In this document: one piece after another, positions 5,511 through 49,801 of the stretch
How the letters are laid out: the number at the start of each line of letters is the position of its first letter
Numbering within the stretch: position 1 is the first letter of the stretch
Source: Dictyostelium discoideum
Taxonomy: Eukaryota
DNA length: 64,000 nucleotides
Direction of reading: 5' to 3'
Assembly: GCA_000004695.1 (NCBI GenBank)
Contig: CM000151.3
Span: 7,424,001 to 7,488,000, forward strand
Notes under the pieces: model-generated
The model's input: the letters and a program-made list of their open reading frames with translations, nothing else
Database searches by the model: none
Told to the model about the DNA's origin: nothing
Position numbers and translations under genes: made by a program

Positions 5511-5758
5511 CCTCATCATCATCATCAAATCATAAATCATCATCACCATCATCATCATCATCATCATTTAGTTCCAACTCTCATTCTACCTCTTTTGGTA
5601 GTAGAAAAAAATCATTTGGTTCAAGTTCGACCACAATGGCTTGGAATACAAGATCAACCATTCAAACTACTCCACATCAATCAAGCAATACCAACAATGC
5701 TAGTGGAGTAGTTGGTTCTTCAAGTGCCAAGACATATTTTGTTAAAAATGGAATGTAA
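3326..5758 (+). CDS. LARP1-like La-related protein, two exons: join(3326..3408, 3511..5758). La motif at the N-terminus, DM15 repeats near the C-terminus.
   Basis: ATG at 3326. GTAAGT donor at 3409 and ...ttttag acceptor ending at 3510 keep the frame (..[37 protein letters not shown] = La motif). The C-terminal block [36 protein letters not shown] matches the DM15/LARP1 signature. Stop TAA at 5756-5758. Confidence 0.75.
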
Positions 5759-6262
5759 GGCTTTTCCAACCTCTTTCCAATCCACTTGGAAAGACTTGAG
5801 TTGGAATCAACAAAAACAACTAAATCTTGATAATATGACAACTAAAATGATGATAAACAAAACACAACCAAATACACACCACACCAAAGATGATACTAAA
5901 AACCAAAATACAAAAACTCACTACCACCAACACCACCAAAAAATAAAAAAAGAAGAAAAACAAAAAAAATATTTGTCTATAAAAATAAAAATAAAAATAA
6001 AAGTTCTGTTCAAAAAAAAAAAAAAAAAAAAACGTTAAAAATAAAATTGTCTTTGAATATTCCTACCTATTTTATTTGTTTCATACTAACACCATTTGTC
6101 ACATTTTAATCAACGAGTAAACGCCAAAAAACAACGGTTTTCTCTAATTATTTAACACTTTTGTTATTGGAAATCGATTCCCACCAACTCTGGAATATTC
6201 CAATTTTAAAAAAAAAATTAACCAAACATGGGTTTTGGCTAAATTTAAAAAAATTTCAAGAT

Positions 6263-6358
6263 GGGGATGTAGCTCATATGGTAGAGCGTATGGTTTGCAT
6301 AAACAGCAACGATAATCAGAGTTCCATAAGGTAAAGGGATCGATACCCTTCTTCTCCA
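6263..6358 (+). tRNA. tRNA-Ala(UGC), copy 1, with a putative ~23-nt intron 3' of anticodon position 37
   Basis: Cloverleaf parts: acceptor GGGGATG/CTTCTCC with a G3:U70 pair (alanine identity element); D arm GCTC-ATATGGTA-GAGC; anticodon stem TATGG/CCATA with loop TTTGCA + 23-nt insert + T; T arm AAGGG-ATCGATA-CCCTT; discriminator A; a T-run follows. The identical 96-nt sequence recurs inverted at 10539-10634. Confidence 0.65.
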
Positions 6359-6387
6359 AAATTTTCTTCATGAAAACGATTATCAAT

Positions 6388-6398
6388 GGTTCGATTCC
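6388..6398 (+). promoter_or_regulatory. External B box (ex-B) of the tRNA-Ala gene, a Pol III TFIIIC site characteristic of Dictyostelium tRNA genes
   Basis: GGTTCGATTCC lies 30 nt downstream of the tRNA 3' end. The same motif sits at the corresponding position of the inverted copy (about 10499-10509). Confidence 0.6.
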
Positions 6399-6399
6399 C

Positions 6400-9300
6400 T
6401 TAAAAGTGTCAATAACCTCACAAGAATCTTGGAAAGGAGACTAGACAGAATATACCTTAACAATAGCATAATCAACTACAGCCAATTATACTTAAGGAAC
6501 CTAATCCCCCCAAAAATTAATGACATACCTCTATCAGATCACAACTTCCTATCAACCACCTTCACTCTACCCAACATACAGATGAACAGGCGCAGATGGA
6601 GATTAAAAAAATCCTCAATCCTCTCAAGCATAATGCTTAAGAAAATAGACTTCCTACTTAACGATTATTCAAGGGAGCTGTCATCCAACCATAACTCTAT
6701 TTCCTTCTCTCAACTCAACAGCTTACTAAACAAAATAAAACAACTATACACAGAATTTCAAAAACAAAATGACTACAACAATAAGGCAAACATCAAAAAT
6801 CTAATCTCCCTACTAGAGACAGAATTTAAAGACCAAGCCTTCGCAACCCTTTCAGCAATAAATGAATCTAAAAAAAGAGAAGAACAACTTAAACAAGAAT
6901 TGAACAACTATTGCGAAGAAACCTCACTCAAGTACATCTCCGCGAGAATCAAGAAAAGACACAATGATTTCACCATCAACGCAGTAAAAGATGCACAAGG
7001 TAGAACAATCAACAAACAGGAATTGATCGAAGAAGAATACGTAAAATATTACTCAAATCTTTATGACTACAAAGAAGATGACGCACCATCTCATTATGAA
7101 ATGTTGGAAAATTGGACAGTGACCAGGGACTCAACATGGGACAACCTTGAAAATTGAATTTCACAACACAAGAGATCCTAGAAGGTATTAAAACAAATTG
7201 AACCCACACAAATCTCCAGGCCCAGATGGAATTCCAAACTTATTCTACATAACACACAAAGAAAAACTAGCTCCAATACTGGCCTCAGCATTCAACGACA
7301 CTTTAAGAAATCCTCATCTAATTAGCAAAAATTACAAAGAAGGCCTCATTATCACGATACCTAAAAAGGGAGACCCCGAACTAATCAAAAACAGAAGACC
7401 AATTACACTGGCTAACTGTATATATAAAATCCACTCAAAACTAATAAACAATAGAATAATCCCAATACTAACGAAAGTGATCAACCACAATCAAAAAGGT
7501 TTCGTACCAGGCAGATTCATTATAGATAATATCATATCAATGAACGAATTAATCAACTATTGTAATGATAAAAGAATTAACGGAATAATTACACTATATG
7601 ATTTCGAAAAAGCTTTTGACTCGATTTCACACGGTTCAATACTCAGATCACTACAACACATCAACATTCCAACCAATATAATCAACCTGATAATGAATCT
7701 ACTCACCAAATCTGAAGCAAGAATTGAAATTAATGGTAGAACTACTATACCCTTTGAGATCAAAAGAGGAGTCAAACAAGGAGATCCACTATCACCCACC
7801 CTGTTCGTCCTTGTAATAGAGGCTTTAGCTAGAAAAATTTTACAAGATGACCGAATTACTGGCCTTCCTCTAAACAACAGCAACCACAGAGAGAAATTCC
7901 AAAGCTTTGCAGACGACTCGGCTTCAATGGTCCCAGACTCTCAACAACTTGAATTAGTACTACAACACTTCAATTCATTTTGCAAAGCCACTTCCTCAAA
8001 ACTAAACATCGACAAATCTTCATCAATTCTTATAGGCAACCCAGACAATACCAACCAAAGAATACCAATATCTACAAATCCAGAAAGATACTTGGGATAC
8101 TTCTTCACAGGCAAAGGGATAACAAGAAAAATGCCAGAAATATTAAACACAATAAGATCATCCTTAGTACTATGGAAAACCACTGACTCAACAATCAAAA
8201 CCAAAACCAACATCCTCAAAGCATTCGCACTCTCTAAATTAACCTACTATTCATATGTAGAGAACTTTAAGGAAGAGGAATTAAACCAAATCAATAAATT
8301 GGTCGAATGGTTTTTATCGGCACCTAACAACAAAAATGCTAGTGGATTTCAAGTTATTAATTTAATGAGAACCAAAAGAGCAAGATACCCACTAAATGTA
8401 GGGGGCTGGAACATTTGGAATATAGAATTGAGACAACTGGCGCAGAAACTTTGGATCATAAACCAGTTCATCCTAGCACTAGAAACCAAACAAACAAACT
8501 CATCTCATCACAAAAGCTGGGAATATCAGATCCAAAAAAACAAATTCACATCCAGATACCTAAAAGAAAACTTAGACGAATGGAACAAAATAAGAATAAA
8601 AAAAGCAATCTTCAACAATAATCTCACATCCATAAAAAACGAAAATGGACGACCACTTTCACTGGCAGAATGGTATACCACAATTCAAGACCAAAATCCA
8701 ACCATCCCTAAAACGGAATTCCAATCATCTCTAAACTTAAGAGGCTACAGCTATAATCAACTCTTCAACAACATACTGAAGATAAAAGACCCTAAAACAA
8801 GAGACACAATGTTTAGATTCCATGCCAGATGCCTTCCAATAAACTACCTTCACAACAAACAATGCCCACTCTGCAAAGAAGATATGAGCAAAGACCCATA
8901 CGGTCACCTGTTCTTCTCATGCAAGAAAACAAAACAATTCATAAAAATAAATAAACTCAAAAATTTCATCTATATTACCACAGGCAAAGGTAAAAACTGG
9001 CACCATACAAGAATTAGGCAAAATAACAATTTCATTAATAGAATAACTCCAAAATTATCACCGATAGCCAAAAAAGATCAAGAAGTGAATGCAGATTACG
9101 CCAACCTCAGATTCCACAAAGAATACTTTGAATGGAACTATAAAGCAATAGACTATGATCTAACTAGATCATTCGCATATAGAAACCTAATGGCCCTTAT
9201 CCTCCACAACATTTGGATTTGGATTTGCAATCAAATATACAGTGAAGATCCTTTAACAGATGAATCACTATCATACAGCTCCCTTCTAAAGAAATGGCAC

Positions 9301-9589
9301 AAATTGGCCACTCTAGAATACATCAAAAAAGCAAAAGATCTGAAAAACTTATCAGCAAAAGACCATAATAACTTCAAAGATCCTAAGATCCTTCTCACTT
9401 CAACGATCAAGCTAAGAAAAACAACAGCTAATTACTATTGTATTCCAGAATCATCTCTCCCAAATATTATATCTTTTGATCAATTCATATGATTAAAATA
9501 ACCCTTCAGCTTAAATGATAAGCCTATAAATAAATATTAAATAAAACTCGTATTAACACAGATGGACATATATCAATCTTGTTAATCTA

Positions 9590-9623
<34 letters not shown>
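6400..9623 (+). mobile_element. TRE3-type tRNA-gene-targeted non-LTR retrotransposon, 5'-truncated. It starts inside the APE domain of ORF2, has a frameshift between the APE end and the RT, and ends in a 3'UTR plus oligo(A).
   Basis: ORF 6429..7157 carries the endonuclease C-terminal motifs (..DRIY..PLSDHNFL). ORF 7198..9492 is a reverse transcriptase (SPGPDGIPNLFY.., ..QGDPLSPTLF.., FADD) plus a C-terminal Cys/His finger (CPLCKEDMSKDPYGHLFFSC). The insertion is immediately 3' of a tRNA gene and its ex-B box, same orientation as the tRNA. Poly(A) runs 9595-9623. Confidence 0.8.
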
Positions 9624-9625
<2 letters not shown>

Positions 9626-10538
9626 AAACTCAACCTTATAAATTGAAAAACTTAACTTAACTGTATCCTCTCAAGTTGAGTGGCGATTGAAATTCAGTCT
9701 TTGAAATGTTTGTGTATGTTTTGTGAATTTCGTCATACTATTCCGCTAATGATCATCCAAAGTTTCTGAAAATGTAGAAACCATGTAAAAAGTAGTCCTG
9801 TTTGAATTTGGAGTTGACTGTTTTTTTAAATATCAGCTGGTATTTTAAATTTAGAATAAAATAAATTCATCAAACGATATTAAATTTGGCAGCATTGATT
9901 CTGGAATTTTATTAGACCAGTGTTTTTCCATTAAACAATAATTAAATGTTTAATTATATTAATTTTAATTTTAAAATAAAAGGAATTTTTATAATTATTA
10001 TTTATTCATTTTAATTATTTTTTTTTTTTTAATGTACTAAATGGATAAATAAAATATTGAAATTGTAGTTAATGAAATAAATTGTTTCAAGAATACTATT
10101 TGGGAGACCCAGATTCTGCAACACAATAAGCTTTGCAAGTTAATTTTCTTAATATATTTTATTAAGGAAATAGTTTGGATCTTTAAAATTGCTTGGATGT
10201 TTTGAAATAGATAGTTTTAAATTGTTTGAATTTTATATATTCATGAGTGTTTATTTTTTTATCCTTTTGTTAAGGAGAGTTCGATATGAAATTATTCATC
10301 TCTAAATGGTCATTCAATATACAGTTGGTTGCAATTCCAAACTCATTTGATATGAATTATTAAGGCCATTATGTTTAATATGAGGTTCGGGATAGGTCAT
10401 AGTTAACAATTTTTTACCCTATTCCGAGTATTCTTTGTGGAATCTAAGATCCTATGGTAACTCATGACCTTATCGATTAAATTCAATCTAATAAATGGAG
10501 AATCGAACCATTGATCACCGTTTTCAGGACAAAAATTT

Positions 10539-10634
10539 TGGAGAAGAAGGGTATCGATCCCTTTACCTTATGGAACTCTGATTATCGTTGCTGTTTATGC
10601 AAACCATACGCTCTACCATATGAGCTACATCCCC
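10539..10634 (-). tRNA. tRNA-Ala(UGC), copy 2, 96 nt identical to copy 1, inverted orientation
   Basis: Exact reverse complement of 6263-6358, with an ex-B-like GGTTCGATTCTCC at about 10497-10510 on the minus strand. Confidence 0.65.
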
Positions 10635-10699
10635 ATCTTGAAATATTTTTAAAATTAGCCAAAAACCATCTTTAGTAAATTTTTTTTTAAAATAAGCCA

Positions 10700-10850
10700 A
10701 AAACGAATTATTCCAGAGTTGGTGGTCGATCTCCAATAACAAAAGTGTTAAATAATTAGAGAAAACCGTTGTTTTTTGGCGTTCCAATACCAAAATTGTT
10801 AAATAATTAGAGAAAACCGTTGTTTTTTTTGCTTGTTCTATTGTGGGTAT
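10700..10850. repeat. Tandem duplication (~55 bp x 2) in the conserved 5' flank of tRNA-Ala copy 2
   Basis: ...gttaaataattagagaaaaccgttgtttttt... occurs twice. The single-copy version is present upstream of copy 1 at about 6120-6180. Confidence 0.7.
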
Positions 10851-11511
10851 CGTATTGATGTGGGTTTGATTTTTTGTCCCAGACCAATAGTATGGCCCCT
10901 GTCTCCTCCCCAAGTAAAAGTGATATAAGCTATTCATATTAAATTTTTATTTGTTTTTTATAATATTTAGTGAGTTTTAAATAAAAAGATTTTAAATTAT
11001 AAAAATAGATTAAATTATTAAATTATAAAATTAAGATTTAAATTAATATGACAAAAGTTATTAAAAATAAATATACGATTAAATCTTTTTTTTTTTTGAA
11101 TTGGATAACGCAATTATTATTTGCTTCTCCTTGAGATGCTAGATCTCATTTTATTTTATTTTTTTTTTTTTTACAGGGTCTCTAAAAGAGGGGTTAGTTT
11201 ACTTTTTTTTTTTTTTTTTTTTTTTTGTTTCGAATTTTGAATTGTATTATTACTTTTGATTAAAACATCTTTTTTGTCCAAACTTTTTTCTAAATCTTTT
11301 TTTATTTTATCGTCTGGTTCGTGATTGATGTTTATGACGTATTTGAATTGTTTTTTTTTTAATTGAGTTTTATCCACAATTTCGCTTATTTTTTGTAGGC
11401 ATTTGTGTTGCTTAATATTTGTGGTGTTGTTTGTGATTTTCATTTTATTTTCCTTCTATTTTTTTTATTTTTAAAAATCTGGAAATTTTCTGATTAACTT
11501 GGGGTTCCCAG

Positions 11512-11554
<43 letters not shown>

Positions 11555-11670
11555 TCTTTTTTATATGAAAAATGAAATAATCAAAAAAAGAGATTGTTGT
11601 TGTTTGTTTTTTTTTCGATCTATACGATTAAATCTAAAACGTAGCTAAATAATTTGGAAAATATCGATTA

Positions 11671-11743
11671 GTTCGGATGGTGTAGTCGGTTATCACGAAT
11701 CCTTAACACGGATTAGGTCGTGGGTTCGATTCCCGCTCTGAAT
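11671..11743 (+). tRNA. tRNA-Val(AAC)
   Basis: Acceptor GTTCGGA/TCTGAAT; D arm GTGT-AGTCGGTTA-TCAC; anticodon arm AATCC-TTAACAC-GGATT (anticodon AAC); T arm GTGGG-TTCGATT-CCCGC; discriminator A; T-run downstream. Confidence 0.8.
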
Positions 11744-11749
11744 ACTCTT

Positions 11750-13461
11750 TTATGAAAAAGTAAAGTGTCGTGGGTTTTTAGTTTTGAGGTTGATGGCATA
11801 CCAAAAACGATAGTAGAATTAATAATGAATCTATTAAAAGAAACAACGAATAAGATCAAGATAAATGACTTCCTGGTGGGACACATTACAGTTAACAGAG
11901 GCACAAAACAAGGAGATCCATTATCACCAACAATATTTGCACTTGTAATGGAAGCACTACTAATTGATATACTTAAAGAAATCGAAATTAAAGGATTTAA
12001 ATTATCAGACCAGAAAAGAATCAAGCTAACAGCATTCGCAGATGATATGTCAACTTTCAACAACTCAGCAGAAGAATTAAAATTAGTATTGGATAAAATC
12101 AACAACTACTGTCTAGGTACATCTTCAAAACTTAATCAAGAGAAAACTGTTATGATATGCATTGGTAATATACCACCAAACCTCCCATTTAAGATTAGTG
12201 AAGCTCCAGAAAGATACTTGGGTCTCAATTTCACGAAAGTGGGCCTCAATTCAAAAATCACATCAATCATCAACTCAATCAAAGATAGCTTAAACAATTG
12301 GAAAAGTCAAGCAACTACAATAAGAGCAAAGATGACAATTGTCAAAACATATGCGCTATCGAGATTATCCTACCATCAATATCTAGACTCACTAAATGAA
12401 TCACACATTACTGAACTAAACAATATCATTAAATGGTTCCTCTTCTCCGCAATTAAAAATACATACACAGAAGAACATAAATATAGAACATTAATGACAA
12501 TGGATAGAGCATACGGTGATTGGAAAGAAGGTGGAATTAAGATGTGGGACTTAGGTATCAGACAAATAGCATTCAAAGTTTGGAACATGAATAGATTATT
12601 ACACATTATCAAGATAAAAGCATGCAACATACTACAAGAATGGTATATGGAACAAATCAGCAACAGCAAATATATATCAATTGGATTAAGAGAGATGGTA
12701 GACAGATGGAAAGATTTTAGAAACAACTTTGCACCACAACACAATAAACTAAAATCACTACCTGATTGTATCAAAGGTCAAAACAAAAAGCCACTTCAAC
12801 TTAAAGAAATCTATAACATGTTAATCACTCACAAATACAAATCAATAAGAAAAACAGATGGACAAAAAAATCTAATTTCAATAAATAACATCAACATACC
12901 ATCCATCTTCCAACATATCAACCACATATCACATCAAAAAGGTAGAAATACACTATTCAGATTTTTCTCAAGGTCACTTCCTGGAATCAACTATGAACGT
13001 AACGTACCATGCAAAATCTGTAACAATATAATCCGTGACCCATACACTCACCTTTTTATAGACTGTATGCAAGTAAAAGAAATAGAAAACATAATAATTT
13101 CAACATTCAACAATCTCTCATTCTTCAAGATCAGAAATTGGGATCTCAATTCACTAGATATTAGCAAAACAAATAAAAAAGAAAGAATCTACCCAAATTT
13201 AATCGGCATAATTATACATCAACTATGGAGAATAATTTGTCACAAACTATTCAATCAAGACGAATCTAAAACTCCACCCTCATTTGATCCAACATTAATT
13301 GAAAAAGAACTAACCAACTTAATTAAAATAGAGAAATTCATTTTAATAAAGAAGATTGAAAGGAATGAAACAATATACAAATTAAATAACAGAGACCAAT
13401 TAATAATCAACTTCAACACATCATGGCATAACCCGAACACTCCAAACCCAATTCCACTATA

Positions 13462-13637: not shown

Positions 13638-14267
13638 AGTTTTGAGGTTGATTAATTCATTGATGTTGATGATGTCGGTGAGATACAACACAGCAATACC
13701 CAAAGTATTCATAAACATCAACAGCATTTCTCACCAAAAAGGTAGAAACACCCTCTTCAGATTCTTCTCAAGATCACTTCCAGGTATCAACCACGAAAGA
13801 GACACCAGATGCAAGATCTGTGGCCACCTATTCAGAGACCCTTATTCTCACCTCTTCACTCTATGCCAAGATATCCTTGATATTGAAAAAACCATCATAT
13901 CAACAGTTAACAAATTATCATTCATCAAAATCCACAGATGGTCAATGGATACCTTAGACATATCAAAATACAACAGAACTGAGAGAATCTTCCCCAATCT
14001 CATAGGAATAATAGCACACCAATTATGGAAGATAATCTGTCACAAATTGTTCAACACTGATGAAAGCAAACCAGAGCCAAAATTCGAACAAAAGGTCATA
14101 GAAACAGAATTACTAAATCTCATCGAAACTGAAAAATTCATCACACTAAAGAAAATCAAACACGACGAAGCAATACTAAAAAACACCAATCAAGATCTTC
14201 ACAAATACAAATTCAACAAAGCCTGGCAAACCCCAGCAGCTCCGAACCCTCTTCCAATTTAAGTAGT

Positions 14268-14326
<59 letters not shown>

Positions 14327-14457
14327 TATAATATAGTTTAAAAAATTTAATACAATTGAATAATAAAAATAAAACCGTTTAACAAACACAGCCGAAAAGA
14401 CACAAGGACATTCCTTGAAGGTCTGATCACAGGTAAAAAAAAAAAAAAAAAATTGAT
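13638..14457 (+). mobile_element. TRE3 fragment 3 (C-terminal ORF2 plus 3'UTR), abutting copy 2 head-to-tail
   Basis: ORF 13642..14262 is homologous to 12900-13462 (ISHQKGRNTLFRFFSRSLPGIN...CKIC...DPY.HLF). A-tract, UTR and oligo(A) run to 14457. It starts with the same 13-mer gttttgaggttga as copy 2. Confidence 0.7.
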
Positions 14458-14499
14458 GTTGATGATGTTGTCTATGATGAATCTGTGGGGTACGAAACC

Positions 14500-15340
14500 A
14501 GTTTGGTTGTTGTTGATGATGAAAGGAAGTATTCTCAGAAGACGTGCATTTATTACTTTTGAGGATCTTGTAATCAGTGTTTAGAAGTGTGATGGGACGA
14601 CGATTTGATATGAGTAAGGGGTTGCCTTTCTTATATATTGTGTGTATAAGACCTTCGGTGAATTCTGTTGTGATGTGGTGAGGGTTTTCTAGTATATCGT
14701 TGAATAATGTAGTGAGAATTGGTTTAACTTGGTTTAAATGATTAATGTAGAATGTATTTGTAACGCCACCTGGACGGGGTGATTTGTTGGAGTTACAGGT
14801 TTTAATTGCAGCTTCAACTTCATCTTGTATAAATGGTGAGTCTAAACCATTCCAATAATCATTTTTAATGATGGGCCATGTGTTTAGCATGTATTGGTGA
14901 GTAATTGGACAACATATTTGTAAGGTATATAGATTTGTGTAGAATTCAACAAACGCATTTTCAATTTGGTCGGGGTCGGATGTAATGATGTTACCATATT
15001 GGATTGATTCAATTTTTGCATCTTTTGATCTTTTGTTTAGTATTGCTGATAGATACTTGCTAGGTATTTCTCCATTTATATGTTTTTTTAATATGTTTGT
15101 GTGGTTTTGATGTAGTTTGTTTTTGTTACATATAATATTGTATTCAGGGATGCATTGTCCTTCAAGATGTTTGAATTTTGCTGCTTTTTCTAATAGTATT
15201 TGTTTTGCACGTTGAGTTTGTTTGTCTTTGTTATATTGATAGTTTTTTAGAGTTTTAATAATTTTAGATTTTACTTTTGACCAATTTGTAAATTGATTGA
15301 TTGATGTGTTATTGTGATAATATTCCACTACCACCAACAC
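14500..15340 (-). mobile_element. TRE3 fragment in inverted orientation (APE end and N-terminal RT region)
   Basis: Minus-strand ORF 14213..15340. Its real part (about 14540-15340) reads ..KSPRPGGVTNTFYINHL..NPHHIT..RRPITLLNTDYKILK, parallel to copy 1 residues SPGPDGIPNLFY..NRRPITLANCIYKIHS. The 3' portion of the listed ORF is junk read through neighbouring A/T tracts. Confidence 0.6.
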
Positions 15341-15479: not shown

Positions 15480-15855
15480 AAAATTCAAAAATTAAAAGAT
15501 CCATAAGGCCGTGATACAATGCAAAGATTCCATGCTAGATGTCTTCCAATTAATCATCTACACAACAAAGTTTGCCCCATTTGCAACAATGAAATGAATA
15601 ATGATCCCTATGGCCATTTGTTTTTCAATTGTCAGTACACAATCAATTTCATAAACCATGACAAATTAAAATATTTTATATATAAAAATTGCAATGGAAA
15701 CAAAAACTGGTCATTAACAAAAAACAAAACAACAAAATTATCAAATTTTAGAGTATTAATTTATATAAAAAAAACTTTTGTTTTAAAAGTCGATTATTAA
15801 AAAAAAAAAAAAACATAAATGATTATACCTTGGAAAAAAAAAAAATAAAAAAAAG
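15480..15855 (+). mobile_element. TRE3 3' terminal fragment (Cys/His finger, UTR, oligo-A)
   Basis: ORF 15519..15800: FHARCLPINHLHNKVCPICNNEMNNDPYGHLFFNC, homologous to the ORF2 C-terminus of copy 1, followed by A-rich tails. Confidence 0.6.
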
Positions 15856-15873: not shown

Positions 15874-18800
15874 TTATTTTAAAGTGGAGGGGAAATAATT
15901 TGTTCTTTGATTGGTAACAACGGCAATCAAATTTTCATTGACACCTGATGTGGATTTTGAAATTGCACAAGTTAAGAAATGACAAAATTTACATTTAAAT
16001 AAATTCCAATCATTGTTTTGTTGTATGTTTTGATTTTGCTGTTGTTGTTGTTGTTGCTTTGATTTACTATTATTTGAATTATTATTATTATTATTATTAA
16101 TATTATTACTGTTATTATTATAAACAATTTCAATTGAAGATCTTTCATAATCACCAACAACATTAATAATATTAGTATAACCCCAAGCTAAATAATTTAA
16201 ATTATTATATCCATGAAGTTTTTTCATATCACCTAAAAAGTTTGAACAACCGATTATATGATTTGGACAATCCAAATCAGAGCCAGGAGTGCAACAACAT
16301 TTTTTTGGGTTTGAGTATTTTCTATTATCGAATGGAGTTAACAAAGTGAAAGAACAAGCACCACAAAGACATTGAAAAAGGGTTGAATTTGTTTCACCAC
16401 CTCCCCATTCAGAGAGACCTTTAAAGTTTCTTCTTTGTTTACCCCAACGACAAAGTTGTTCAACGAAACCAGTATTTGGAGAGATAATGTAACGACAATC
16501 TCTAACGAGAATGAATGCTTCAAAATAACTAATGGAACGTGAATCCATAAAGTAACCAATTGCCAAGGCAGATGAACGAGAAACACCTTTATCAGAGCAA
16601 ATTAAAACTTTACCATGATGAACGATAGCATCACGAATGAAATCAAAAGCCAATGATAATGATTGAGTGATATCTTGATGAGGTTGGTCATGAAGTTGTA
16701 AATGAAGATACTCGAAATGGTCTGGGAAAGCATTTGGAGAACCAGTGCAATTGATAATATGAGTGATTTGATATTCATTGATTAACATGTTTTTATTCAT
16801 TGAGGGATTAAAAGAGGAGATATACATAAACGAGGCAACTTTTGATGGTCTATCCATATAGAAACGATGTTCAGGAAACTCTGCAGCTTCATAGGGCATT
16901 TCCAAAGTTGATTTATCTCCATCTACCATTAGACTACCCACTTTGATTGGATTATTAGCATTGTAACTATGTGGCAAGAAACGACCTGGAGTATAGTGAC
17001 CAGTGAATTTAATACTCTTTGCCTTATAGCTTGTACCATCACCACCATTATAGTATTGTTTTGGTTTCTCGACGGTATTCATTTGATTTGACATATGACC
17101 ATCTAATTTCTTTTTCAATTGTTCCCATTGTGATAGGATGGTTGGTTTAATTGCAATGAATTTAGTTAACAAATCTCTTAGAGTTGGACGATAGAAAGGA
17201 TCACGAATGAATACATAATCCAAATAATCTAAAATGGCAGGAATATTTGCAACCTTTGATTTTCTTTCGGGTGTAATAAGTTCTTGACCAGGTTGAGTGA
17301 CACGAATAAAGAATTTAACCCAATCATCGTCGTAAAAGAGAAAATCACCAGTTAACAATTCATAGAAAAGACAACCCAATGACCAAACATCACTTGCAGT
17401 ATTTGAACCAACTTTTTTACGTCTATCAAAATTTTCACGAGTCTTTTGAGAAGCGTATGCAATTGTGAGCATTTCTGGTGATTTTATAAACTCGGTACCA
17501 CGATTTCTAGTTGTATAACCTTCTACGTCTTGAGTGTAAACTTTAGCTTCACCCCAATCGGCTAAACAAACTGCAAAGTTTGGATCATTGGTTGGTTGAT
17601 TCCAAAAGTCCTCTTCTATGGTACCTTTTTTCAATGGATGTACCAAAAAGTTATCACATTTAATATCGAAATGATTGATTTTATGATCACCTAAAAATTG
17701 AACACTTTGAAGTACATTGGTAAATATATTTAAAAGTAGTGGTAATAATTCTAAAAATGGTAAAGTTTGTTTTAATCTCCACTCTTTTAGACTACATTTA
17801 TAAGATTTCATTACTATCCAATAGTTTTCACCATCGACACCATAATCAAACATATGACAACCTCTTGAATCACTTCTAAATGTATCCATAATTAAAATCT
17901 CTGTGAAAATATCATAAAGTACACAACGGTCATGAATTGTTTTTGGAACAGGCATTAGTTTTACAGCGATTTCCAAACCTTCATCATTACCCAATGTACC
18001 TTTGTACACTGTACCATAGGCACCCTTTGCAACACGTTTTAAATCTTTAAAAAGATTGGAATGATATAGTCTACTAAAGAGTAACTTTAAAATTCTAAAA
18101 TGATTTGGACCCATTTCATGAGTTCTCTTTGTTAACTCTGGTATGATCTTCTCATTATCTTGATGATTAATATGTAAATGAAGAATGAAAGGTACATTCA
18201 ATTTCTTTGCAACAATTGGGAATTGATCGGAATAAAGATGTTCAAGAGTTTGGTTTGAATTTAATAATAAACTGAAAATTAATTGAAGTAATGAAATATG
18301 TAAATCCCTATCATGATAGAGTTTACGATTATTTCTCTCCAATTGATAACGTTGATTTTCATTGAAAATTTCATTTTCTGTTGGTTCAATCATTTGTTCA
18401 CTATCACGATCAGATGGTGTTAACGATTGTGATGGATTATCCAATACCAATTGAAATTTAGGATCTTGTGGATCAATCTTTTGTTCAATTGATGATAATA
18501 CACCAGTACCAGCTTGTTTAGTATCTTCTTCTGATCTAATTTTAATTGCTGGTAATACTAATTTTGGTATTAAAATTGGTGGTTTTGAACTTGAAATATT
18601 AATTGGACTATTTGATAATTTTGGTAAATTTATTTCATTGTTGTTGGAAGCAATAGTATTATTACTATTATTTATTGGTGGTGGTGTTGTTGTAGTTGTT
18701 GTTGTTGTTGTTGAACCTCCTTTACTTATTGATCCTAAATTTAATGATTTAATTATTGGTTTTGATATTGGTTGGTTTGGTTGTGATGGTGGTACAGTTT

Positions 18801-19761
18801 CAGTTGATGATGAACTTTTACTTAATGATGATAAATTTAAAGAAAATTGTGGTTTTCCTGTTGGTGTTGTAGTAGTTGTTGTTGTTGTTGAGTTGCTATT
18901 GTTAGTGGTTGTTGGAATATTTTTTAAATTTAAAAGATTTGGTGTTGAAGTTGATGCTTGTCCAGTTTTACTAACTGATGATAAGTTCAATGAGAATTTT
19001 GGTTTGGGTGGAGCAGGTAATGGTGGTTCTGTGGAAACAGATCCTATAGTTGTAGTTGTAGTTGATGTTGATGTTGATGATGTAGAATCTATTATTGTTG
19101 AGGCTGGAACTGTTGTAAGTGATGTTGTAGTTGAATTTGATGATGATGATGATGATGATATAGTTGTTGTAGTTAAATTTGATGATGAAGTTGAAGCTGG
19201 AGAACCTTTACTTATAGATGATAAATTCAAAGAGAATTTTGGTTTAATTAGAGGATTTGAAGAAACTCCTGTAGTTGGTGGAGTAGATGCCAAAGTTGAT
19301 GGAGTGGATATCAAAGTTGATGGTGATGATGTTGAAGAACCACTATCAATTTTAGGTTGAAGTGATAATTTTGGAATTACAGGAGGTGAACTTGTATTAT
19401 TGTTGTTACTACTATTGTCGGTTTTAGTGATTCCACTTAAATTTAAACCAAGATTTAATTTTGTACCTGGTGTAGCTAATTTAGGAATGGTAGGTGGACC
19501 ACCAGTTTTAATTGGTGTTGTAGAATTTGTGTTTGTAGTTGTAGTTGTTTTAGTTGTAGTAGTAGTTGTTGTTGTTGTTGTTGTTGATAATGATAATGAA
19601 GATGAAGTTGAGGAAGAGGATGATGTATCATCTGAACTATTTGCAAAAAATGGAATTGATGATAATGGTTTTAAAAATTGATCTTTATTTTGTTTTATTT
19701 CATATTCCAAATTAACTTCTCTAACTAAGAAATCCATTGTTCTTAATTGATAAAATTTCAT
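15874..19761 (-). CDS. Large protein (1295 aa) with an N-terminal S/T/P-rich mucin-like region, a eukaryotic protein kinase domain, a dual-specificity-phosphatase-like domain, and a C-terminal Cys-rich, poly-N/Q tail
   Basis: ATG at 19761. Kinase motifs: glycine loop AKGAYGTVYKG, lysine IAVKLM, catalytic HFDIKCDNFLV, DWG (in place of DFG), SPE. Phosphatase-like P-loop VHHGKVLICSDKGVSRSSA, which is C-x6-R rather than the canonical C-x5-R. Confidence 0.75.
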   Translation of the reverse strand: MKFYQLRTMDFLVREVNLEYEIKQNKDQFLKPLSSIPFFANSSDDTSSSSSTSSSLSLSTTTTTTTTTTTKTTTTTNTNSTTPIKTGGPPTIPKLATPGTKLNLGLNLSGITKTDNSSNNNNTSSPPVIPKLSLQPKIDSGSSTSSPSTLISTPSTLASTPPTTGVSSNPLIKPKFSLNLSSISKGSPASTSSSNLTTTTISSSSSSSNSTTTSLTTVPASTIIDSTSSTSTSTTTTTIGSVSTEPPLPAPPKPKFSLNLSSVSKTGQASTSTPNLLNLKNIPTTTNNSNSTTTTTTTTPTGKPQFSLNLSSLSKSSSSTETVPPSQPNQPISKPIIKSLNLGSISKGGSTTTTTTTTTPPPINNSNNTIASNNNEINLPKLSNSPINISSSKPPILIPKLVLPAIKIRSEEDTKQAGTGVLSSIEQKIDPQDPKFQLVLDNPSQSLTPSDRDSEQMIEPTENEIFNENQRYQLERNNRKLYHDRDLHISLLQLIFSLLLNSNQTLEHLYSDQFPIVAKKLNVPFILHLHINHQDNEKIIPELTKRTHEMGPNHFRILKLLFSRLYHSNLFKDLKRVAKGAYGTVYKGTLGNDEGLEIAVKLMPVPKTIHDRCVLYDIFTEILIMDTFRSDSRGCHMFDYGVDGENYWIVMKSYKCSLKEWRLKQTLPFLELLPLLLNIFTNVLQSVQFLGDHKINHFDIKCDNFLVHPLKKGTIEEDFWNQPTNDPNFAVCLADWGEAKVYTQDVEGYTTRNRGTEFIKSPEMLTIAYASQKTRENFDRRKKVGSNTASDVWSLGCLFYELLTGDFLFYDDDWVKFFIRVTQPGQELITPERKSKVANIPAILDYLDYVFIRDPFYRPTLRDLLTKFIAIKPTILSQWEQLKKKLDGHMSNQMNTVEKPKQYYNGGDGTSYKAKSIKFTGHYTPGRFLPHSYNANNPIKVGSLMVDGDKSTLEMPYEAAEFPEHRFYMDRPSKVASFMYISSFNPSMNKNMLINEYQITHIINCTGSPNAFPDHFEYLHLQLHDQPHQDITQSLSLAFDFIRDAIVHHGKVLICSDKGVSRSSALAIGYFMDSRSISYFEAFILVRDCRYIISPNTGFVEQLCRWGKQRRNFKGLSEWGGGETNSTLFQCLCGACSFTLLTPFDNRKYSNPKKCCCTPGSDLDCPNHIIGCSNFLGDMKKLHGYNNLNYLAWGYTNIINVVGDYERSSIEIVYNNNSNNINNNNNNNSNNSKSKQQQQQQQNQNIQQNNDWNLFKCKFCHFLTCAISKSTSGVNENLIAVVTNQRTNYFPSTLK

Positions 19762-19855
19762 TGATATCTTATCATTTTTACTTTATTAAAAATAATAATT
19801 ATTAGTATGTTTGAAGACAGAGAAAAAAAAATAATAATAATAATAATAATTTTAC

Positions 19856-20335
19856 TTACTTTACAGAAAAAGAAATTAAAATATTTAAAAATAATCTACA
19901 TAATGTTAAAGTTGCTTGATCAAAAATATAATTATTATATAATTTAATGAAACTTATATAAATATAACTAATATATGAATCAATATATAATTTCTTTTTA
20001 GTGAATGGATTCTTTTTGAAAAGGAAAACATGATTTAAAAATTTAAGCATTTGTTTCTTTACATTAAAATGAGTAAAGAAATTGTTTGATTGTAAAAATG
20101 GTAAAATTACACCATTCCCTTGTGGTAATAATAAAAATTCCATTTTTTTTAATAAATCTGGTATTTCATTTTCATTTGTTGTTGTTGTTGTTGAATTAGT
20201 TCCTGTTGTTGTTGATGATGTTGATGTTGATGTTGGATTAGTTCCTGCTGTTGTTGTTGATGATGAATTTGTTTGACTTGAAGTTGGTGTATTTAAATTA
20301 TTTGCTAAATTACCACTACTTCCACTATTATTTGA

Positions 20336-20413
<78 letters not shown>

Positions 20414-22433
20414 TATATTATTTATATTATTATTATTACAATTATGTTGATTATATAATTTATTTTCTTGTTGTTTTTTAAATTTAAATTTTAACATTTT
20501 AACACAAATTGAAAAATGTTTAATTGAACGACAACGAAATTCAGTTAAACGAATTTTATTTTGATCATTTGGATAACATTTTGAGAATTCTCTTTCGATT
20601 GATTCATTTGTAAGAATTTGAATTGTATATTGTTTAATGAATTGAAAAGTTTCATCACGTTCTAAAAATATTGAAATGAATAAATCATTGATTGGTGAAC
20701 TTTTATTTTGTTTAATGATTTCATCGAATACGGTCAATAGATAATGAATGATATGAATGTCTTTAACTCTATCCGATGTGATTGGACCACGAAATATACT
20801 ATGTTTTACTTTTAACAATGATTCAATACAAACGTCAACCACTTGAGATGAAAGAATTCTTGAGGGACAATTCTCCATATACTCTGAGAGTATGCAAAGT
20901 TGATATTCCATATCATCAAAGGTAAAAGTTTCCAACATATTTGAGATACTAGAATTGATTCTCCATAAGAGTAAATCCAATTTCTTTCTAAATGATGCTT
21001 TTCTCTCTAACCCCATACCTTTGGTAACGTCCCTCCAACGATTACGATGAATATACTCTACATAATCTGACCAATGACTTGCCAATTTATAAAACAAGGT
21101 TAAATGATCCTTATCAGATGGAATGATACCTTTGTGAAGTAATATCGATTCAGAGTATAATATGTTTATTGGGTTATTACCATACTGTAACAACATTAAA
21201 TTATTTGATGTCGATGAGATCAATGTCTTTAGAATATTACATCTAACTTTGTATAGATTTAACTCTGAAAATGAAGATTGTTGTTGATTTACCATTGATA
21301 ATGCTGCTGTGTTTTTACTTGAAATCGGTGGTATATCATATCTTCTTGAAGGTATTGAACGTTTTGATTGTTTGTGTGATTCAATTGCTTGTTTATATGA
21401 TATCAATGCTGTAAGATCTGCTGTCATATAGGTTTCACCCAATTTAATTGCTAAATCACTCAATTCTTTAGATGCACTAGTTTCAATTTTCAATTCACCT
21501 TGATGTGATCTTGTTGAATTGGATGCATCATCTCTTCTTCTACTTGATCTTGTATTTCTTGTACTATTTTCAACACGTACTGGTAAATTTAAACGTGGTA
21601 CAATTGATTTCGATATACCACCACCACCACTACCACCTCCACCACCACCACCAATTCCACCCATTGAAAGCATTGGAACTTTACTAATTGATCCACCACT
21701 AGTTGCACTATTTGGTGTATTATTTGGATGGATTTGATTTACATTATTATTATTTATACTATTTGATAATGGTAATGGTGGTACTCTTGATGTTATTGAT
21801 GGTGTTGATATCGTTGGTGTTGATATTGTTGTTGTTGTTGTTGTTGTTGCTGCCGCTGTTGAATTATTTGAATTTAAAGATGCTACAGTTGAAGAAATTA
21901 ATGGACTATCCATTGGGCTACTAGTATTACTATCATTATTATTATTATTATTATTGCCTCTATTTCTATTAAATAATGGTGGAGTTTGATATAAACTTGG
22001 ATTATGATAATGTAAACTTTGAATTTGACCAATTGAGGTTGGTTTTGGATTGTTTGATGGTGGATTGGTAGATGTTGAAATTGGTGATGTTACAGATGAT
22101 GGTAAATTTGGTGTTGGTGCTGGTGTTATATTTGTACTATTTACATTGTTATTATTATTTGTTATTGTAGATATTGGTGATAAAATTGAGGTTGGTGTTG
22201 TAACATCCCCACTCTTTGTATTTGATTGTTGTATTATTGTATTATTATTATTATTACTAGTAGTTGATTGTTGATGTTGTTGAAAAAGTGGTGGTCTTGG
22301 TATTGGTACACTTGTTAATAAATTCTCAAAAGTGAAACCTTGTGGTGGAGGTGGTGGTACACCATCATCCCAACAAGGTATCTGTATGGATTGAAATTCA
22401 TGTATATTAAGTTTTTGTTGCTGTTGTTGCTGC

Positions 22434-22520
<87 letters not shown>

Positions 22521-23353
22521 GAATTTTGTTTTTGTTGTTGTTTTCCTAAAGTTTTTGTTGGTGAAGAATTTGAAGTAGTTGAAGATGTAGTTGATGCTGT
22601 AGATGCTGTTGTTGCAGATGATGACGATGATGATGACGATGATTGTAAAGGACTTGATGTTGATGTTGGTATAGATGATGATGAATTTGATAATTGCTGT
22701 TGTGATTGTTGCACAACTGGTGTTGAATTTATATGTATAGAAGGATCAACTTTAAATTTTATATTTGATAAAGCTAATGAACATTTATAATAAATTTCTA
22801 ATAATTTTGGTATGCATAAATCTTCAATAAAAATCTTTAATTTTTTTATTAATACAAAATTACTTTTTTTTTTTTTTTTGTTGTTTTTTTATTTTAATTA
22901 AAATACATACAGATCTTAAAGGATAAAAAGAAATAATTTTTGTTAAGACATCAGAAATACCAATACATTCAATGTCATTATAAAGATGAGAAATGATTTG
23001 TTTACAAAATAAACGTGATGCATCATGTGAATTATCGATGAGTTGTTGGCAAATCTCTATGATTACATCATTTTTTATAGAGTTTTTACCACAATAACAT
23101 AGACATTGTATTAATATTGTTATACCACCTTGAGTTATACAATGATTCTTTTCTGTACTATCCAATAATTTTATCTTTTCTTTTAAAACAATTAATGATT
23201 CTAATAGTTGATTACTTCTTTCATTTGATTCATGATTATGTGTTGTTGATGTTGTTGTTGTTGTTGTGGTGGTGGTGGTGGTTGTTGTAGTTAATGATGA
23301 TGTTGATACATTATTCTTTGATTTAATTAAAATATTTAAAGATGAGAATAACT

Positions 23354-23387
<34 letters not shown>

Positions 23388-23613
23388 ATAGAAAAAATAA
23401 AAAGAAAAGGAAAAAAGTTTGAAATTTGGGGGGTTAATGTTTCCTATTATTTTTTTTTTTATTTTTTTTTTTAATTCTATCTTTTTATTTTTTTTTTTTT
23501 TTAATAAAAAAATTTTAAACATAATATCTTACATCTTCAATATCAAGCATATACTGTTTTTGTTTATGTGGTGTAATTGAAAGTGCACGATGCTTTCTAG
23601 ATCTTTCCATCAT
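19856..23613 (-). CDS. Poly-Q/N-rich protein. Main ORF 19856..22888 (the listed 22714 start is GTG). Probable upstream exons 22864..23351 and 23533..23613 (ATG), but the two ORFs sit in different frames across a (T)16 run.
   Basis: The minus-strand ORF stays open in frame upstream of 22714 to about 22888. A second minus ORF (23351..22864, ..GGITILIQCLCYCGKNSIKND.., ARM/HEAT-like) ends with TAA inside the T-run 22864-22879. No splice acceptor restores the frame. Candidate first exon MMERSRKHRALSITPHKQKQYMLDIED with GTAAGA donor at 23532 and acceptor ..ccag|ttattc at 23352. Confidence 0.4.
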
Positions 23614-25283: not shown

Positions 25284-27310
25284 ATGAGAGTATTACTTGT
25301 ATTAGTTGCATGTTTAACATATTTTAGTGGTGGTGCATTAGCACAATGTAAGTTCCTTGAATTAAATAAAAAATAAAAAAACAAATAAAAAATTAAAGGA
25401 TTGAAAAAAAAAAAAAAACCAATTAGATTAAGTTTTTGGAAAAAAAAGTTAAAAAAAAAAAAAAATGAATCAAATAATAAAAACAATAATAATAAACATA
25501 ATTAGAATAAAAATATAGAAAAAAATCTAACTTAAATATATTTTTTTTTTTTTTTTTTTTTTCTAATATAGCATGTTCTTCATATTCTGGTGACAATTGT
25601 CCAAGTACTTGTTTCCAAGGATCATATGATATCCCATGTGGTGCACAAGTTAAATATTGTACAGAAATGAAAGATAATTGTGGAGAAGGTGGTGATGTTA
25701 AATGTTGGAAAGATGGTAGTAATCTCCCAGTCCAAACATGGAGTTCATGTGTTCCAAGTGAATTATTTGGTCCAAATGGTAAATTTAAACCAAGTGAAAT
25801 ACCAAATTCTTCAAATTGTCCAACAAATTGTGAAAATGGTGTAGAATGGGTTAATTTATGTGGTTTATCTTGCGATGCTAAAACAGCATGTTGCCCAGAT
25901 GTTTGTCAATGTAAAGGTGGTCAAACAAGTGGTGGTTCAACAACTGGTTCACAAACAAGTGGTGGTTCAACAAGTGGTGGTTCAACAACTGGTTCACAAA
26001 CAAGTGGTGGTTCAACAACTGGTTCACAAACTAGTGGTTCACAAACAAGTGGTGGATCATGTTCAAATACTCAATGTCCAAATGGATTCTATTGCCAAGT
26101 TCAAGGAAATAATGCAGTATGTGTTCCACAACAATCATCAACCAGTGGTGGTCATCAAAATGATCCATGTGATACCGTTCAATGTCCATATGGTTACAGT
26201 TGTGAATCTAGAGATGGCTTTGAAGCTAAATGTACTAGAGATGAAGATGAACCAACTCATAGACCAACTCATAGACCAAAACCACCACACGACAGTGATA
26301 AATACCTCTGTGATAATGTCCACTGCCCAAGAGGATACAAATGTAATGCTAAAAATGGTGTTGCCAAATGTATTGCCGGTTATGAAATTCCAAGAGTATG
26401 TCGTAACATCCAATGTCCAACCGGTTACAGATGTGAAGATCACAACCGTAATCCAATCTGTGTTTTAGAAGAAAGAGAGAATCCAGATAATTGTTTAACT
26501 TGTAATGATGTTAACTGTGAAGCCTCTGGTTTAGTTTGTGTTATGACTCGTGCTAGATGTAAGGTCGGTGCTGCTAAATGTTGTGATGTTCAACCAACTT
26601 GTATCAAACCATCAACCATCGCAGGCTCAACCATCGCTTCAATTGCTTCTACTATTGCTTCAACTGGTTCAACTGGTGCTACTTCACCATGTTCCGTTGC
26701 TCAATGTCCAACTGGTTATGTTTGTGTCGCTCAAAATAATGTAGCTGTTTGTTTGCCAAGACCTACCACTACCACCGGTAGCACATCTGACTCGTCTGCC
26801 CTTGGTTCAACCTCTGAAAGCTCTGCCTCTGGTTCCTCTGCTGTTTCAAGCTCTGCCTCTGGTTCTTCTGCTGCTTCATCTTCACCATCATCATCTGCTG
26901 CAAGCTCTTCTCCATCTTCATCTGCTGCAAGCTCTTCTCCATCTTCATCTGCTGCAAGCTCTTCCCCATCTTCATCTGCATCATCAAGCTCTTCCCCATC
27001 TTCATCTGCATCATCAAGCTCTGCCCCATCTTCATCTGCATCATCAAGCTCTGCTCCATCTTCATCTGCATCATCTTCATCTGCATCATCTTCATCTGCA
27101 TCATCTGCAGCAACTACAGCTGCAACTACAATTGCAACTACAGCTGCAACTACAACTGCAACTACAACCGCAACCACAGCTACAACCACAGCCACAACCA
27201 CAGCTACAACCACAGCTGCAACCATAGCTACAACCACAGCTGCAACTACAACTGCAACTACAACCGCAACCACAGCTACAACCACAGCTACAACCACAGC
27301 TACCTCTTAA
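25284..27310 (+). CDS. Secreted Cys-rich protein with repeated C-P-x-G-[YF]-x-C modules and a C-terminal Ser/Ala- then Thr/Ala-repeat (mucin-like) tail. Spore-coat (SP96/Cot-like) or extracellular-matrix type. join(25284..25347, 25572..27310).
   Basis: ATG at 25284 gives the signal peptide MRVLLVLVACLTYFSGGALAQ. GTAAGT donor at 25348 and ..atatag acceptor at 25571 are in frame with ORF 25667..27310. Five repeats of QCPxGYxCxxxxxxxxC. Tail (SSSASSSSAPSSSA)n then (ATTA/ATTT)n. Confidence 0.7.
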
Positions 27311-49727: not shown

Positions 49728-49801
49728 GGGACTATAGTTTAGTTGGATATAACGACCGGCTACGAACCGGTAGGTCTCAGGTTCGACCCCTGATGGTCTC
49801 G
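49728..49801 (+). tRNA. tRNA-Arg(ACG)
   Basis: Acceptor GGGACTA/TGGTCTC (two G-U pairs); D arm; anticodon arm ACCGG-CTACGAA-CCGGT (anticodon ACG); T arm TCAGG-TTCGACC-CCTGA; discriminator G; followed by T7 (Pol III terminator); ex-B-like GGTTCAATTCC at 49832-49842. Confidence 0.8.

Follow-up and report, generated by a model that had tools for sequence, protein, structure and literature searches.

The stretch analysed here comprises 64,000 nucleotides (nt) of the Dictyostelium discoideum genome (assembly GCA_000004695.1, contig CM000151.3, positions 7,424,001 to 7,488,000 of the forward strand) and is referred to as the window. The listing of its open reading frames (ORFs) holds an uninterrupted minus-strand frame at 15874..19761, translated into 1295 amino acids (aa), in which a protein kinase domain is followed by a domain with the fold of the dual-specificity phosphatases (DSPs) and by a Cys-rich C-terminus. 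A first-pass annotation of the DNA had placed a kinase and a DSP-like domain in this chain, and a Pfam scan matched both at E values of about 1e-23, far beyond chance. The same annotation regarded the combination as rare. This is fair, although the architecture had already been reported for Dictyostelium in 2006-2007: the kinome paper describes a single Dictyostelium kinase carrying a DSP domain (PMC1420674), and the TriTryp phosphatome paper mentions proteins with kinase and phosphatase domains in Giardia, Tetrahymena, and D. discoideum (PMC2175518). New in the present work are the register of the P-loop, the family-wide absence of the catalytic Cys, a four-exon gene model of 2,467 aa, a predicted GFA-like fold at the C-terminus, and the motifs of the linkers.

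The four-exon gene model

The gene is modelled on the minus strand at 15874..23613, with four exons and a coding sequence of 7,404 nt that specifies 2,467 aa in one frame without an internal stop. ORF residue n corresponds to protein residue n+1172, so that Met1 of the ORF is residue 1173 of the protein. The window has a G+C content of 12-34% and contains coding tracts of poly-N/Q/T, as expected of a dictyostelid-type genome. The three introns (181, 76, and 79 nt) are all of the GT..AG type and contain 87-91% A+T. Exon 4 (15874..19780) consists of the 1295-aa ORF, including its stop codon, and 19 nt 5' of its ATG. It is preceded by intron 3 (19781..19859; 79 nt, GTAAGT...AAAG, 87% A+T), which fills the space between this ORF and the ORF upstream of it. 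The donor at 19859 matches GTAAGT perfectly, the acceptor at 19781 is AAAG, and splicing of the two preserves the frame. Exon 3 (19860..22834) encodes aa 175-1166, up to the first two bases of codon 1166, and represents the listed 952-aa upstream ORF, which is separated by 95 nt from the 1295-aa ORF on this strand, starts with GTG, and has no plausible ATG of its own.

The junction between exons 3 and 4 is well covered by homology. After splicing it reads ...ISFSVNKNDKISMKFYQLRTMDFL, compared with ...LSFALNKNNKVCMQFFQLRVMDFL in the transcript-derived homologue P0009, and a single high-scoring segment pair crosses it (aa 1062-1213 vs P0009 257-405, E 2e-24). Moreover, L001, a separate AT-rich contig of genomic DNA, has a kinase-DSP ORF whose immediate upstream neighbour matches aa 618-930 (E 3e-57) and also aa 1072-1194 (E 1e-20) in one uninterrupted frame. 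P0132 (1964 aa), a probable full-length orthologue, matches aa 83-198 (59%), aa 583-956 (54%), and aa 1065-1201 (69%). The junction of exon 2 (22911..23351, aa 28-174) with exon 3 falls inside the first of these alignments (59% identity, E 4e-41 by BLAST), and an alternative acceptor for intron 2 (22862) was rejected as it breaks the frame. Exon 1 (23533..23613, aa 1-27) starts with ATGATGGAA, has an ATG start and a GTAAGA donor, and keeps the frame. No other part of the model is as uncertain: it is placed solely by splice consensus, and no homologue covered it in the BLAST comparisons; the N-terminus of P0132 has a fitting length, its aa 79 being aligned to aa 83 of the window protein.

In-frame splicing and junction-spanning homology favour the spliced gene over an independent 1295-aa protein with its own Met. 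The first-pass annotation had taken the ORF for a single polypeptide; kinase and DSP do share one ORF, but this ORF is the 3' exon of the four-exon gene. In many long family proteins (up to ~3,700 aa, many ~1,700-2,600), the kinase-DSP module also stands at or near the C-terminal end, which is consistent with the 2,467-aa model. At 19856..23613 (-), the prokaryote-style ORF list splits what is modelled as one 2,467-aa gene into the 952-aa ORF and two small exons, and a like split appears among the genes called on L001, where 5732-8041 and 8001-11630 overlap. Neither the 1295-aa nor the 2467-aa sequence had an identical entry in the protein collections searched.

Kinase, DSP fold, and C-terminal domain

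The protein kinase domain (17164..18048, ORF aa 572-866; this and all further features of the gene lie on the minus strand) matches Pfam Pkinase (PF00069) over aa 572-866 with E 1.7e-23 and 83.8 bits against a cut-off of 31.7, whereas the model for Tyr and Ser/Thr kinases (PK_Tyr_Ser-Thr) scores lower (47.7 bits). Its motifs are complete, as the earlier annotation had stated: AKGAYGTV, K601, E621, H697-F-D699-I-K-C-D-N704, D735-W-G in place of DFG, S761-P-E763, and R858, together with a long conserved insert, FDRRKKVG....SDVWSLGC. In an alignment of 57 members of the family, the VAIK Lys, the Glu of helix alpha-C, HxDxKCDN, DFGE, SPEM, DxWSxGC, and the Arg of subdomain XI are conserved at 90% or more. 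DWG is a conservative variant, so far seen only in the window protein and its closest orthologue P0001, the other members of this alignment having DFG and one DYG. A Lys at position +2 from the catalytic Asp and a G-T-E...S-P-E P+1 region are features of Ser/Thr-type kinases. The domain is accordingly assigned by its motifs as a Ser/Thr-type eukaryotic protein kinase, of the non-RD class because of its HFD motif, and it looks catalytically competent. A Foldseek comparison of the predicted model with PDB returned generic kinases only (PAK, MST, STE20, TNIK, CDK2, and DAPK) at ~20% identity, which places the modelled kinase outside any structurally characterised subfamily.

The DSP-fold domain (16423..16875, ORF aa 963-1113) matches Pfam DSPc (PF00782) over aa 986-1108 (E 2e-23, 83.1 bits against a cut-off of 33.5), and the predicted local distance difference test (pLDDT) of its model is 91-98. 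In phmmer searches of PDB sequences, DUSP19 was the best match (E 1.3e-18), accompanied by DUSP1, STYX, and DUSP4. The P-loop, VLICSDKGVSRSS, is encoded at 16570..16608, with Cys1055 at 16597..16599, Ser1056 at 16594..16596, and Arg1062 retained. The string VHHGKVLICSDKGVSRSS is present, and the codons tgc tct at 16599..16594 specify Cys1055-Ser1056; the run att tgc tct gat aaa ggt gtt tct cgt reads I-C1055-S1056-D-K-G-V-S-R1062, with six residues from Cys1055 to Arg1062. This spacing had been taken in the first-pass annotation for one extra residue in the canonical HC-x5-R signature. The phmmer alignment of aa 994-1106 to DUSP19 has no gap near the loop, and VLICSDKGVSR equals VLVH[C]NAGVSR column for column, with Cys1055 in the His column and Ser1056 in the nucleophile column. 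Active DSPs found with this query have VLIHCxxGxSRS in the corresponding columns, where the window protein has VLICSDKGVSRSS. Since these alignments are ungapped, there is no inserted residue, and the site reads as CS-x5-R, a substitution of the same type as the FS-x5-R of MK-STYX. DUSP19 as crystallised (3s4e) itself has Ser at the nucleophile position.

The rest of the P-loop is canonical (G1059, R1062, and S1063). Asp1025 is aligned with the Asp of the D-loop, the general acid of DSPs, and is kept in amoebozoan-like relatives though not family-wide. The HC-x5-R signature with a nucleophilic Cys is absent, and the combination found is that of the STYX-type pseudophosphatases, a DSP fold with a replaced Cys. 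With Ser in place of the nucleophilic Cys, no phospho-cysteine intermediate would be possible. As far as can be judged from its residues, the domain is therefore a catalytically dead pseudophosphatase, which was one of the two options that the first-pass annotation had offered. Docking of substrates for the adjacent kinase, the role suggested there, would be one possible function.

The C-terminal domain (15907..16383, ORF aa 1127-1285) is Cys-rich, as had been claimed, with CxCGxC, CxC, CP..C, and a terminal CxxC, and is interrupted by a poly-N/Q insert (16009..16119). Its fold is of the beta-tent or Mss4-like kind, the zinc fold of the GFA, CENP-V, Yippee-Mis18, and cereblon-CULT domains. Comparison with the GFA/CENP-V family (PF04828) gave similarity of fold and of Cys pattern, and no profile match; three family C-termini gave no Pfam hit even at E<=10, and no PDB match was obtained at the sequence level. 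The domain is presumably GFA/CENP-V/Yippee-like and zinc-binding. An AlphaFold model of 866 residues, covering the pre-kinase helices, the kinase, the DSP domain, and the Cys-rich domain, has a mean pLDDT of 83.6 and a predicted template modelling score (pTM) of 0.82. Its disorder amounts to 108 residues and is confined to the 56-residue kinase-DSP linker and the poly-N/Q insert. A pTM this high over three domains, despite 108 disordered residues, suggests that kinase, pseudo-DSP, and Cys-rich domain form one compact assembly.

Family conservation, linkers, and neighbouring loci

The family was collected by a profile search of 1.84 billion representative proteins, in which 703 matched at E<=1e-30, and every DSP-like domain was aligned to the family hidden Markov model. 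The P-loop census covers the 74 kinase-linked relatives in which a DSP-like domain could be recognised. The Cys and the P-loop Arg occur together (C-x5-R) in none of them. At the nucleophile position, 30 relatives have Asp and 26 have Ser, 19 of the latter together with the Arg; five have Glu and four have Gly. Cys is found in two, both without Arg (P0039, CC..W, and P0141, YC..C). The position before it holds V, Y, I, F, or L in most of the 74, Cys in four, and His in two. In the two closest orthologues, P0001 and P0132, it is Val, and Cys recurs in P0049, P0120, and P0039. The loop of P0001, which is 71-76% identical to the window protein, reads VLIVSDKGVSR, that of the Physarum transcript P0002 reads VLIHSHKGISR, and further relatives have VMIYSEEGISR, VLVYSGKGLSR, and VLIFSERGVSR. 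Ser is also present in eight further fragments of close relatives. A sequencing error at the Ser codon is ruled out by its presence in at least 26 kinase-linked relatives in addition to these fragments. The comparison indicates that Ser1056 is genuine and conserved and that Cys1055 is incidental; what the orthologues conserve is the Ser, not the preceding Cys on which the proposed C-x6-R spacing depends.

The census points to a domain that ceased to be catalytic around the time when the family arose, with retention of the fold. The cradle S-x2-G-x-S/Q-R is kept in 19 relatives that are otherwise only ~30-40% identical. The nearest catalytically intact relatives resemble mitogen-activated protein kinase (MAPK) phosphatases (MKPs), and the pseudo-DSP may for this reason have descended from such an enzyme. 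They include P0127, which is 44% identical and reads VLIHCVKGISRS, and P0128, which combines a DSP with a gelsolin domain, the arrangement of plant MKP1. No animal or fungal homologues occur among the named matches of the family. Contig L001, on which homologue P0003 lies, also encodes a Roc-COR-kinase (ROCO) protein (18284..19630) and RCC1-repeat proteins; these genes are consistent with an amoebozoan source of this metagenomic contig.

Upstream of the kinase, three conserved regions are recognised in the long N-terminal part. Region A (22763..23225, protein aa ~70-198) spans intron 2 and is 59% identical in P0132 and 25-28% identical in P0134, P0142, P0214, and P0139 by BLAST. Region B (20462..21610, aa ~583-965) is matched by P0132 (54%, E 5e-115), the upstream ORF of L001 (35%, E 3e-57), and P0009 (31%, E 7e-32). 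Region C (19639..20173, aa 1062-1213) spans intron 3 and is matched at internal positions by ~30 family proteins; it contains the MKFYQLRTMDFLVREVNLEYE motif, which the earlier annotation took for the N-terminus and which lies inside the region. No Pfam or PDB relative was found for regions A, B, and C, and PDB sequence searches gave low-complexity noise only.

The remainder of the protein consists largely of linkers with short motifs. A disordered linker rich in S, T, P, and N (18502..19635, ORF aa 43-420) carries at least six copies of a repeated [IVM]PK[LF]xL / KPKFSLNLSS motif. The mucin-like stretch of ~450 aa previously assigned to the N-terminus is this region: it is indeed S/T-rich, but it is an internal disordered linker. 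PK[LF].L occurs 52 times in the pre-kinase regions of 57 family members, compared with 1.66 expected from shuffles, and is found even in distant linkers that are otherwise unalignable (three copies of IPKLKLS in P0009, VPKLKLD in P0010, MPKLKLP in P0015, and IPKLGLG in P0002). With a basic residue followed by LxL, it loosely resembles a MAPK docking motif. Between this linker and the kinase lies a segment that is kept family-wide (18049..18465, ORF aa 433-571), comprising a DPKFQLVLDNP motif and an extension that is helical in the predicted model (pLDDT 84-97). The kinase-to-DSP linker (16885..17052) is disordered, with pLDDT <50 over model residues 475-530, and holds the motif HYTPGRFLPH (16969..16998, ORF aa 922-931). 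The form HY(T/S)PGR(F/Y)xPH, with its proline-directed Ser/Thr, is common to P0001, P0122, and P0124-P0126, and is not present in the Physarum transcript (P0002). It could be a putative phosphorylation site beside the dead phosphatase pocket.

The gene is flanked by other coding material. Directly downstream of its stop codon lie an ORF at 14213..15340 (-), which contains RPITLLNTDYKIL, and a small Cys/His zinc-finger-like ORF at 15519..15800 (+); both look like retroelement fragments, and neither scores above a Pfam threshold. Further along, a tRNA-Val(AAC) gene (11671..11745) is followed after 20 nt by an ORF (11765..13459, +) with a reverse transcriptase domain (RVT_1, E 6e-15), an arrangement (11671..13459, +) that resembles the TREs of Dictyostelium, non-LTR retroelements targeted to tRNA genes. 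Divergent from the 5' end of the gene, a 547-aa ORF (25667..27310, +) contains many Cys-rich repeats of the CP.GY.C type and a long Ser/Ala/Thr-rich tail, and has no Pfam match. A second tRNA gene, tRNA-Arg(ACG), is located at 49728..49801 (+).

Known relatives and the proposed role of the protein

The gene is probably D. discoideum dupA. This identification follows from DUSP19 being the best PDB match here and from the window protein having the architecture of the sole kinase-DSP protein in the Dictyostelium kinome. DupA has been described as a regulator of the MAPK response that is similar to a plant MAPK phosphatase and to mammalian DUSP19, and it has reportedly been called a 'putative tyrosine kinase/dual-specificity phosphatase'. 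Against that description, the kinase here is of the Ser/Thr type by its motifs (DIKCDN and G-T-E..SPE), the DSP is without its nucleophile, and the gene is modelled with 2,467 aa instead of the 1,295 aa of the ORF. No paper linking DupA with the term 'pseudophosphatase' was found in the literature searched, which was itself incomplete.

Among characterised systems, the protein appears to work most like a STYX-type pseudophosphatase fused to a kinase. MK-STYX (STYXL1/DUSP24) is an established inactive MKP with FS-x5-R in place of HC-x5-R, and STYX binds ERK1/2, competes with MKP-2, and modulates MAPK signalling without catalysis (PMC8622459). The window protein shares with both a DSP fold in which the catalytic Cys is replaced (FS-x5-R in MK-STYX, C120G in STYX, which gains activity in the G120C back-mutant). 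However, neither of them has a kinase, a GFA-like domain, or a giant N-terminal region, and MK-STYX has a CH2/rhodanese domain, for which the window protein gave no rhodanese match in Pfam; membership in the MK-STYX group is thereby ruled out. The loss of the Cys is separate from, and much older than, that of MK-STYX and STYX, and took place in a different DSP lineage.

Plant and green-algal PHS1 (PROPYZAMIDE HYPERSENSITIVE 1) likewise has an N-terminal kinase and a C-terminal MKP-like DSP in one chain. Its atypical kinase, a tubulin kinase, resembles actin-fragmin kinase and is regulated by the DSP, which is active (PMC8783414). The window protein differs in having a canonical eukaryotic protein kinase (Pfam Pkinase) and a dead DSP; it gave no Act-Frag_cataly match in Pfam at E<=0.1, the only kinase models matched being Pkinase and PK_Tyr_Ser-Thr. 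Homologue P0004 carries the source name 'PHS1 family', and the orthology to PHS1 that this name brought up is ruled out by the canonical kinase and the dead DSP. The kinetoplastid 'kinatases' described by Brenchley et al. (2007) also join kinase and DSP in one protist protein, and have two pseudokinase domains, leucine-rich repeats, and an active DSP (PMC2175518). The polarity here is the opposite, with an active-looking kinase whose motifs are intact, no leucine-rich repeat match in Pfam, and a dead DSP, which rules out membership in that group.

On the reading preferred here, which is considered probable, the ORF is the last exon of a signalling protein of ~2,467 aa that combines an active-looking kinase, a DSP without nucleophile, and a GFA-like domain. 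The C-terminal ~870 residues would form one compact three-part module, in which the kinase would be the only enzymatic activity and the DSP fold, rigidly packed against it, would serve as a non-catalytic regulatory or docking element. The DSP domain probably binds a phospho-residue, since the Gly/Arg cradle is retained in Dictyostelium and many relatives, including the 19 divergent ones, since amoebozoan-like members keep the D-loop Asp, and since the nearest active relatives are MKP-like. By analogy with STYX, a candidate ligand is a MAP kinase, for example ERK1, with its activation loop phosphorylated (pT-x-pY); another is a phosphorylated S/T-P site in the protein's own linkers, such as HYTPGRFLPH. 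Binding would couple the state of the MAPK to the output of the kinase. Any effect on MAPK phosphorylation would then be indirect, whether the protein acts by sequestration, competes with genuine MKPs, or phosphorylates components of the pathway, and would not come from direct dephosphorylation.

Several points weigh against this reading. About three quarters of the relatives (~55 of 74) have a degenerate or deleted P-loop or are without its Arg, so that phosphate binding is not a family-wide role and may not apply here either. The catalytic death of the domain is deduced from its sequence, from the behaviour of Cys-to-Ser mutants, and from MK-STYX, and the name dupA is itself a probable identification by analogy. 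The compact module, with the putative interface between kinase and DSP, is read from the pTM and pLDDT of the predicted model. Furthermore, dupA mutants are said, in the abstract of the DupA paper, to show sustained hyperphosphorylation of ERK1, read there as lost phosphatase activity, which at face value favours catalysis. The same phenotype is consistent with a truly bifunctional kinase/phosphatase, in which Ser1056 or other chemistry of the cradle would support residual hydrolysis or phosphotransfer. The canonical G1059, R1062, and S1063, the Asp1025 kept in amoebozoan-like relatives, and the selection on the pocket that is implied by Ser and Arg being kept together in 19 divergent relatives would all suit such an enzyme. 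It is nevertheless judged unlikely: replacement of Cys by Ser is the standard inactivation of protein tyrosine phosphatases (PTPs) and DSPs, with substrate binding kept (DUSP19 in 3s4e carries Ser), MK-STYX with FS-x5-R is inactive, and in half of the family the loop is lost or the nucleophile position holds Asp, Glu, or Gly.

Far more doubtful still is a non-canonical active phosphatase with Cys1055 as nucleophile and a C-x6-R loop one residue longer, the other option raised by the first-pass annotation. The literal Cys1055-x6-Arg1062 spacing does exist, and Cys recurs at this position in P0049, P0120, and P0039, but the alignments with DUSP19 and other DSPs show neither insertion nor deletion, and the position is Val in P0001 and P0132 and mostly V, Y, I, or F (His in a few) across the family. 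In structures of PTPs and DSPs, the residue in the His column of HCX5R turns its side chain away from the phosphate pocket, which counts against this proposal as well. The least improbable of the competitors is a purely structural role, in which the DSP would bind no phospho-ligand and would serve the kinase only as a rigid scaffold or as an allosteric lobe, perhaps with an autoinhibitory effect like that in PHS1. Given that most of the family is without the Arg, this alternative is a serious rival even if it is not the expected outcome. All relatives keep the fold even where Arg or loop is gone, the model is compact with a high pTM, and the phosphatase domain of PHS1 keeps the fused kinase off (PMC8783414). 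Yet that suppression needs a phosphatase activity that is absent here, and a cradle kept in the Dictyostelium branch and in 18 other relatives at ~30-40% identity is unexpected for a purely structural loop.

A broader proposal is more tentative and is given somewhat less than an even chance. It holds that giant Ser/Thr kinases of this kind form an ancient family, widespread among protists and in the green lineage, whose MKP-derived DSP was already without its nucleophile in the common ancestor and was kept along with the GFA-like domain as an obligatory lobe of the kinase, so that DupA would be a kinase that senses phospho-MAPK and not a phosphatase. If so, its linkers would carry conserved PK[LF]xL docking motifs and an S/T-P site, and the phenotype of the dupA knockout, read as loss of a phosphatase, would be the loss of a non-phosphatase.

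The coding unit to be considered is about twice the length of the ORF, and the working part of the protein would be the kinase, with the DSP fold as a dead, probably phospho-binding or allosteric lobe. This changes which mutants are informative: a kinase-dead form, a Ser-to-Cys back-mutation, and a change of the P-loop Arg. The protein would offer a clean case, found in nature, of a pseudophosphatase that is a fixed part of a kinase chain; the kinatases, in which pseudokinases are joined to an active phosphatase, show the reverse arrangement.

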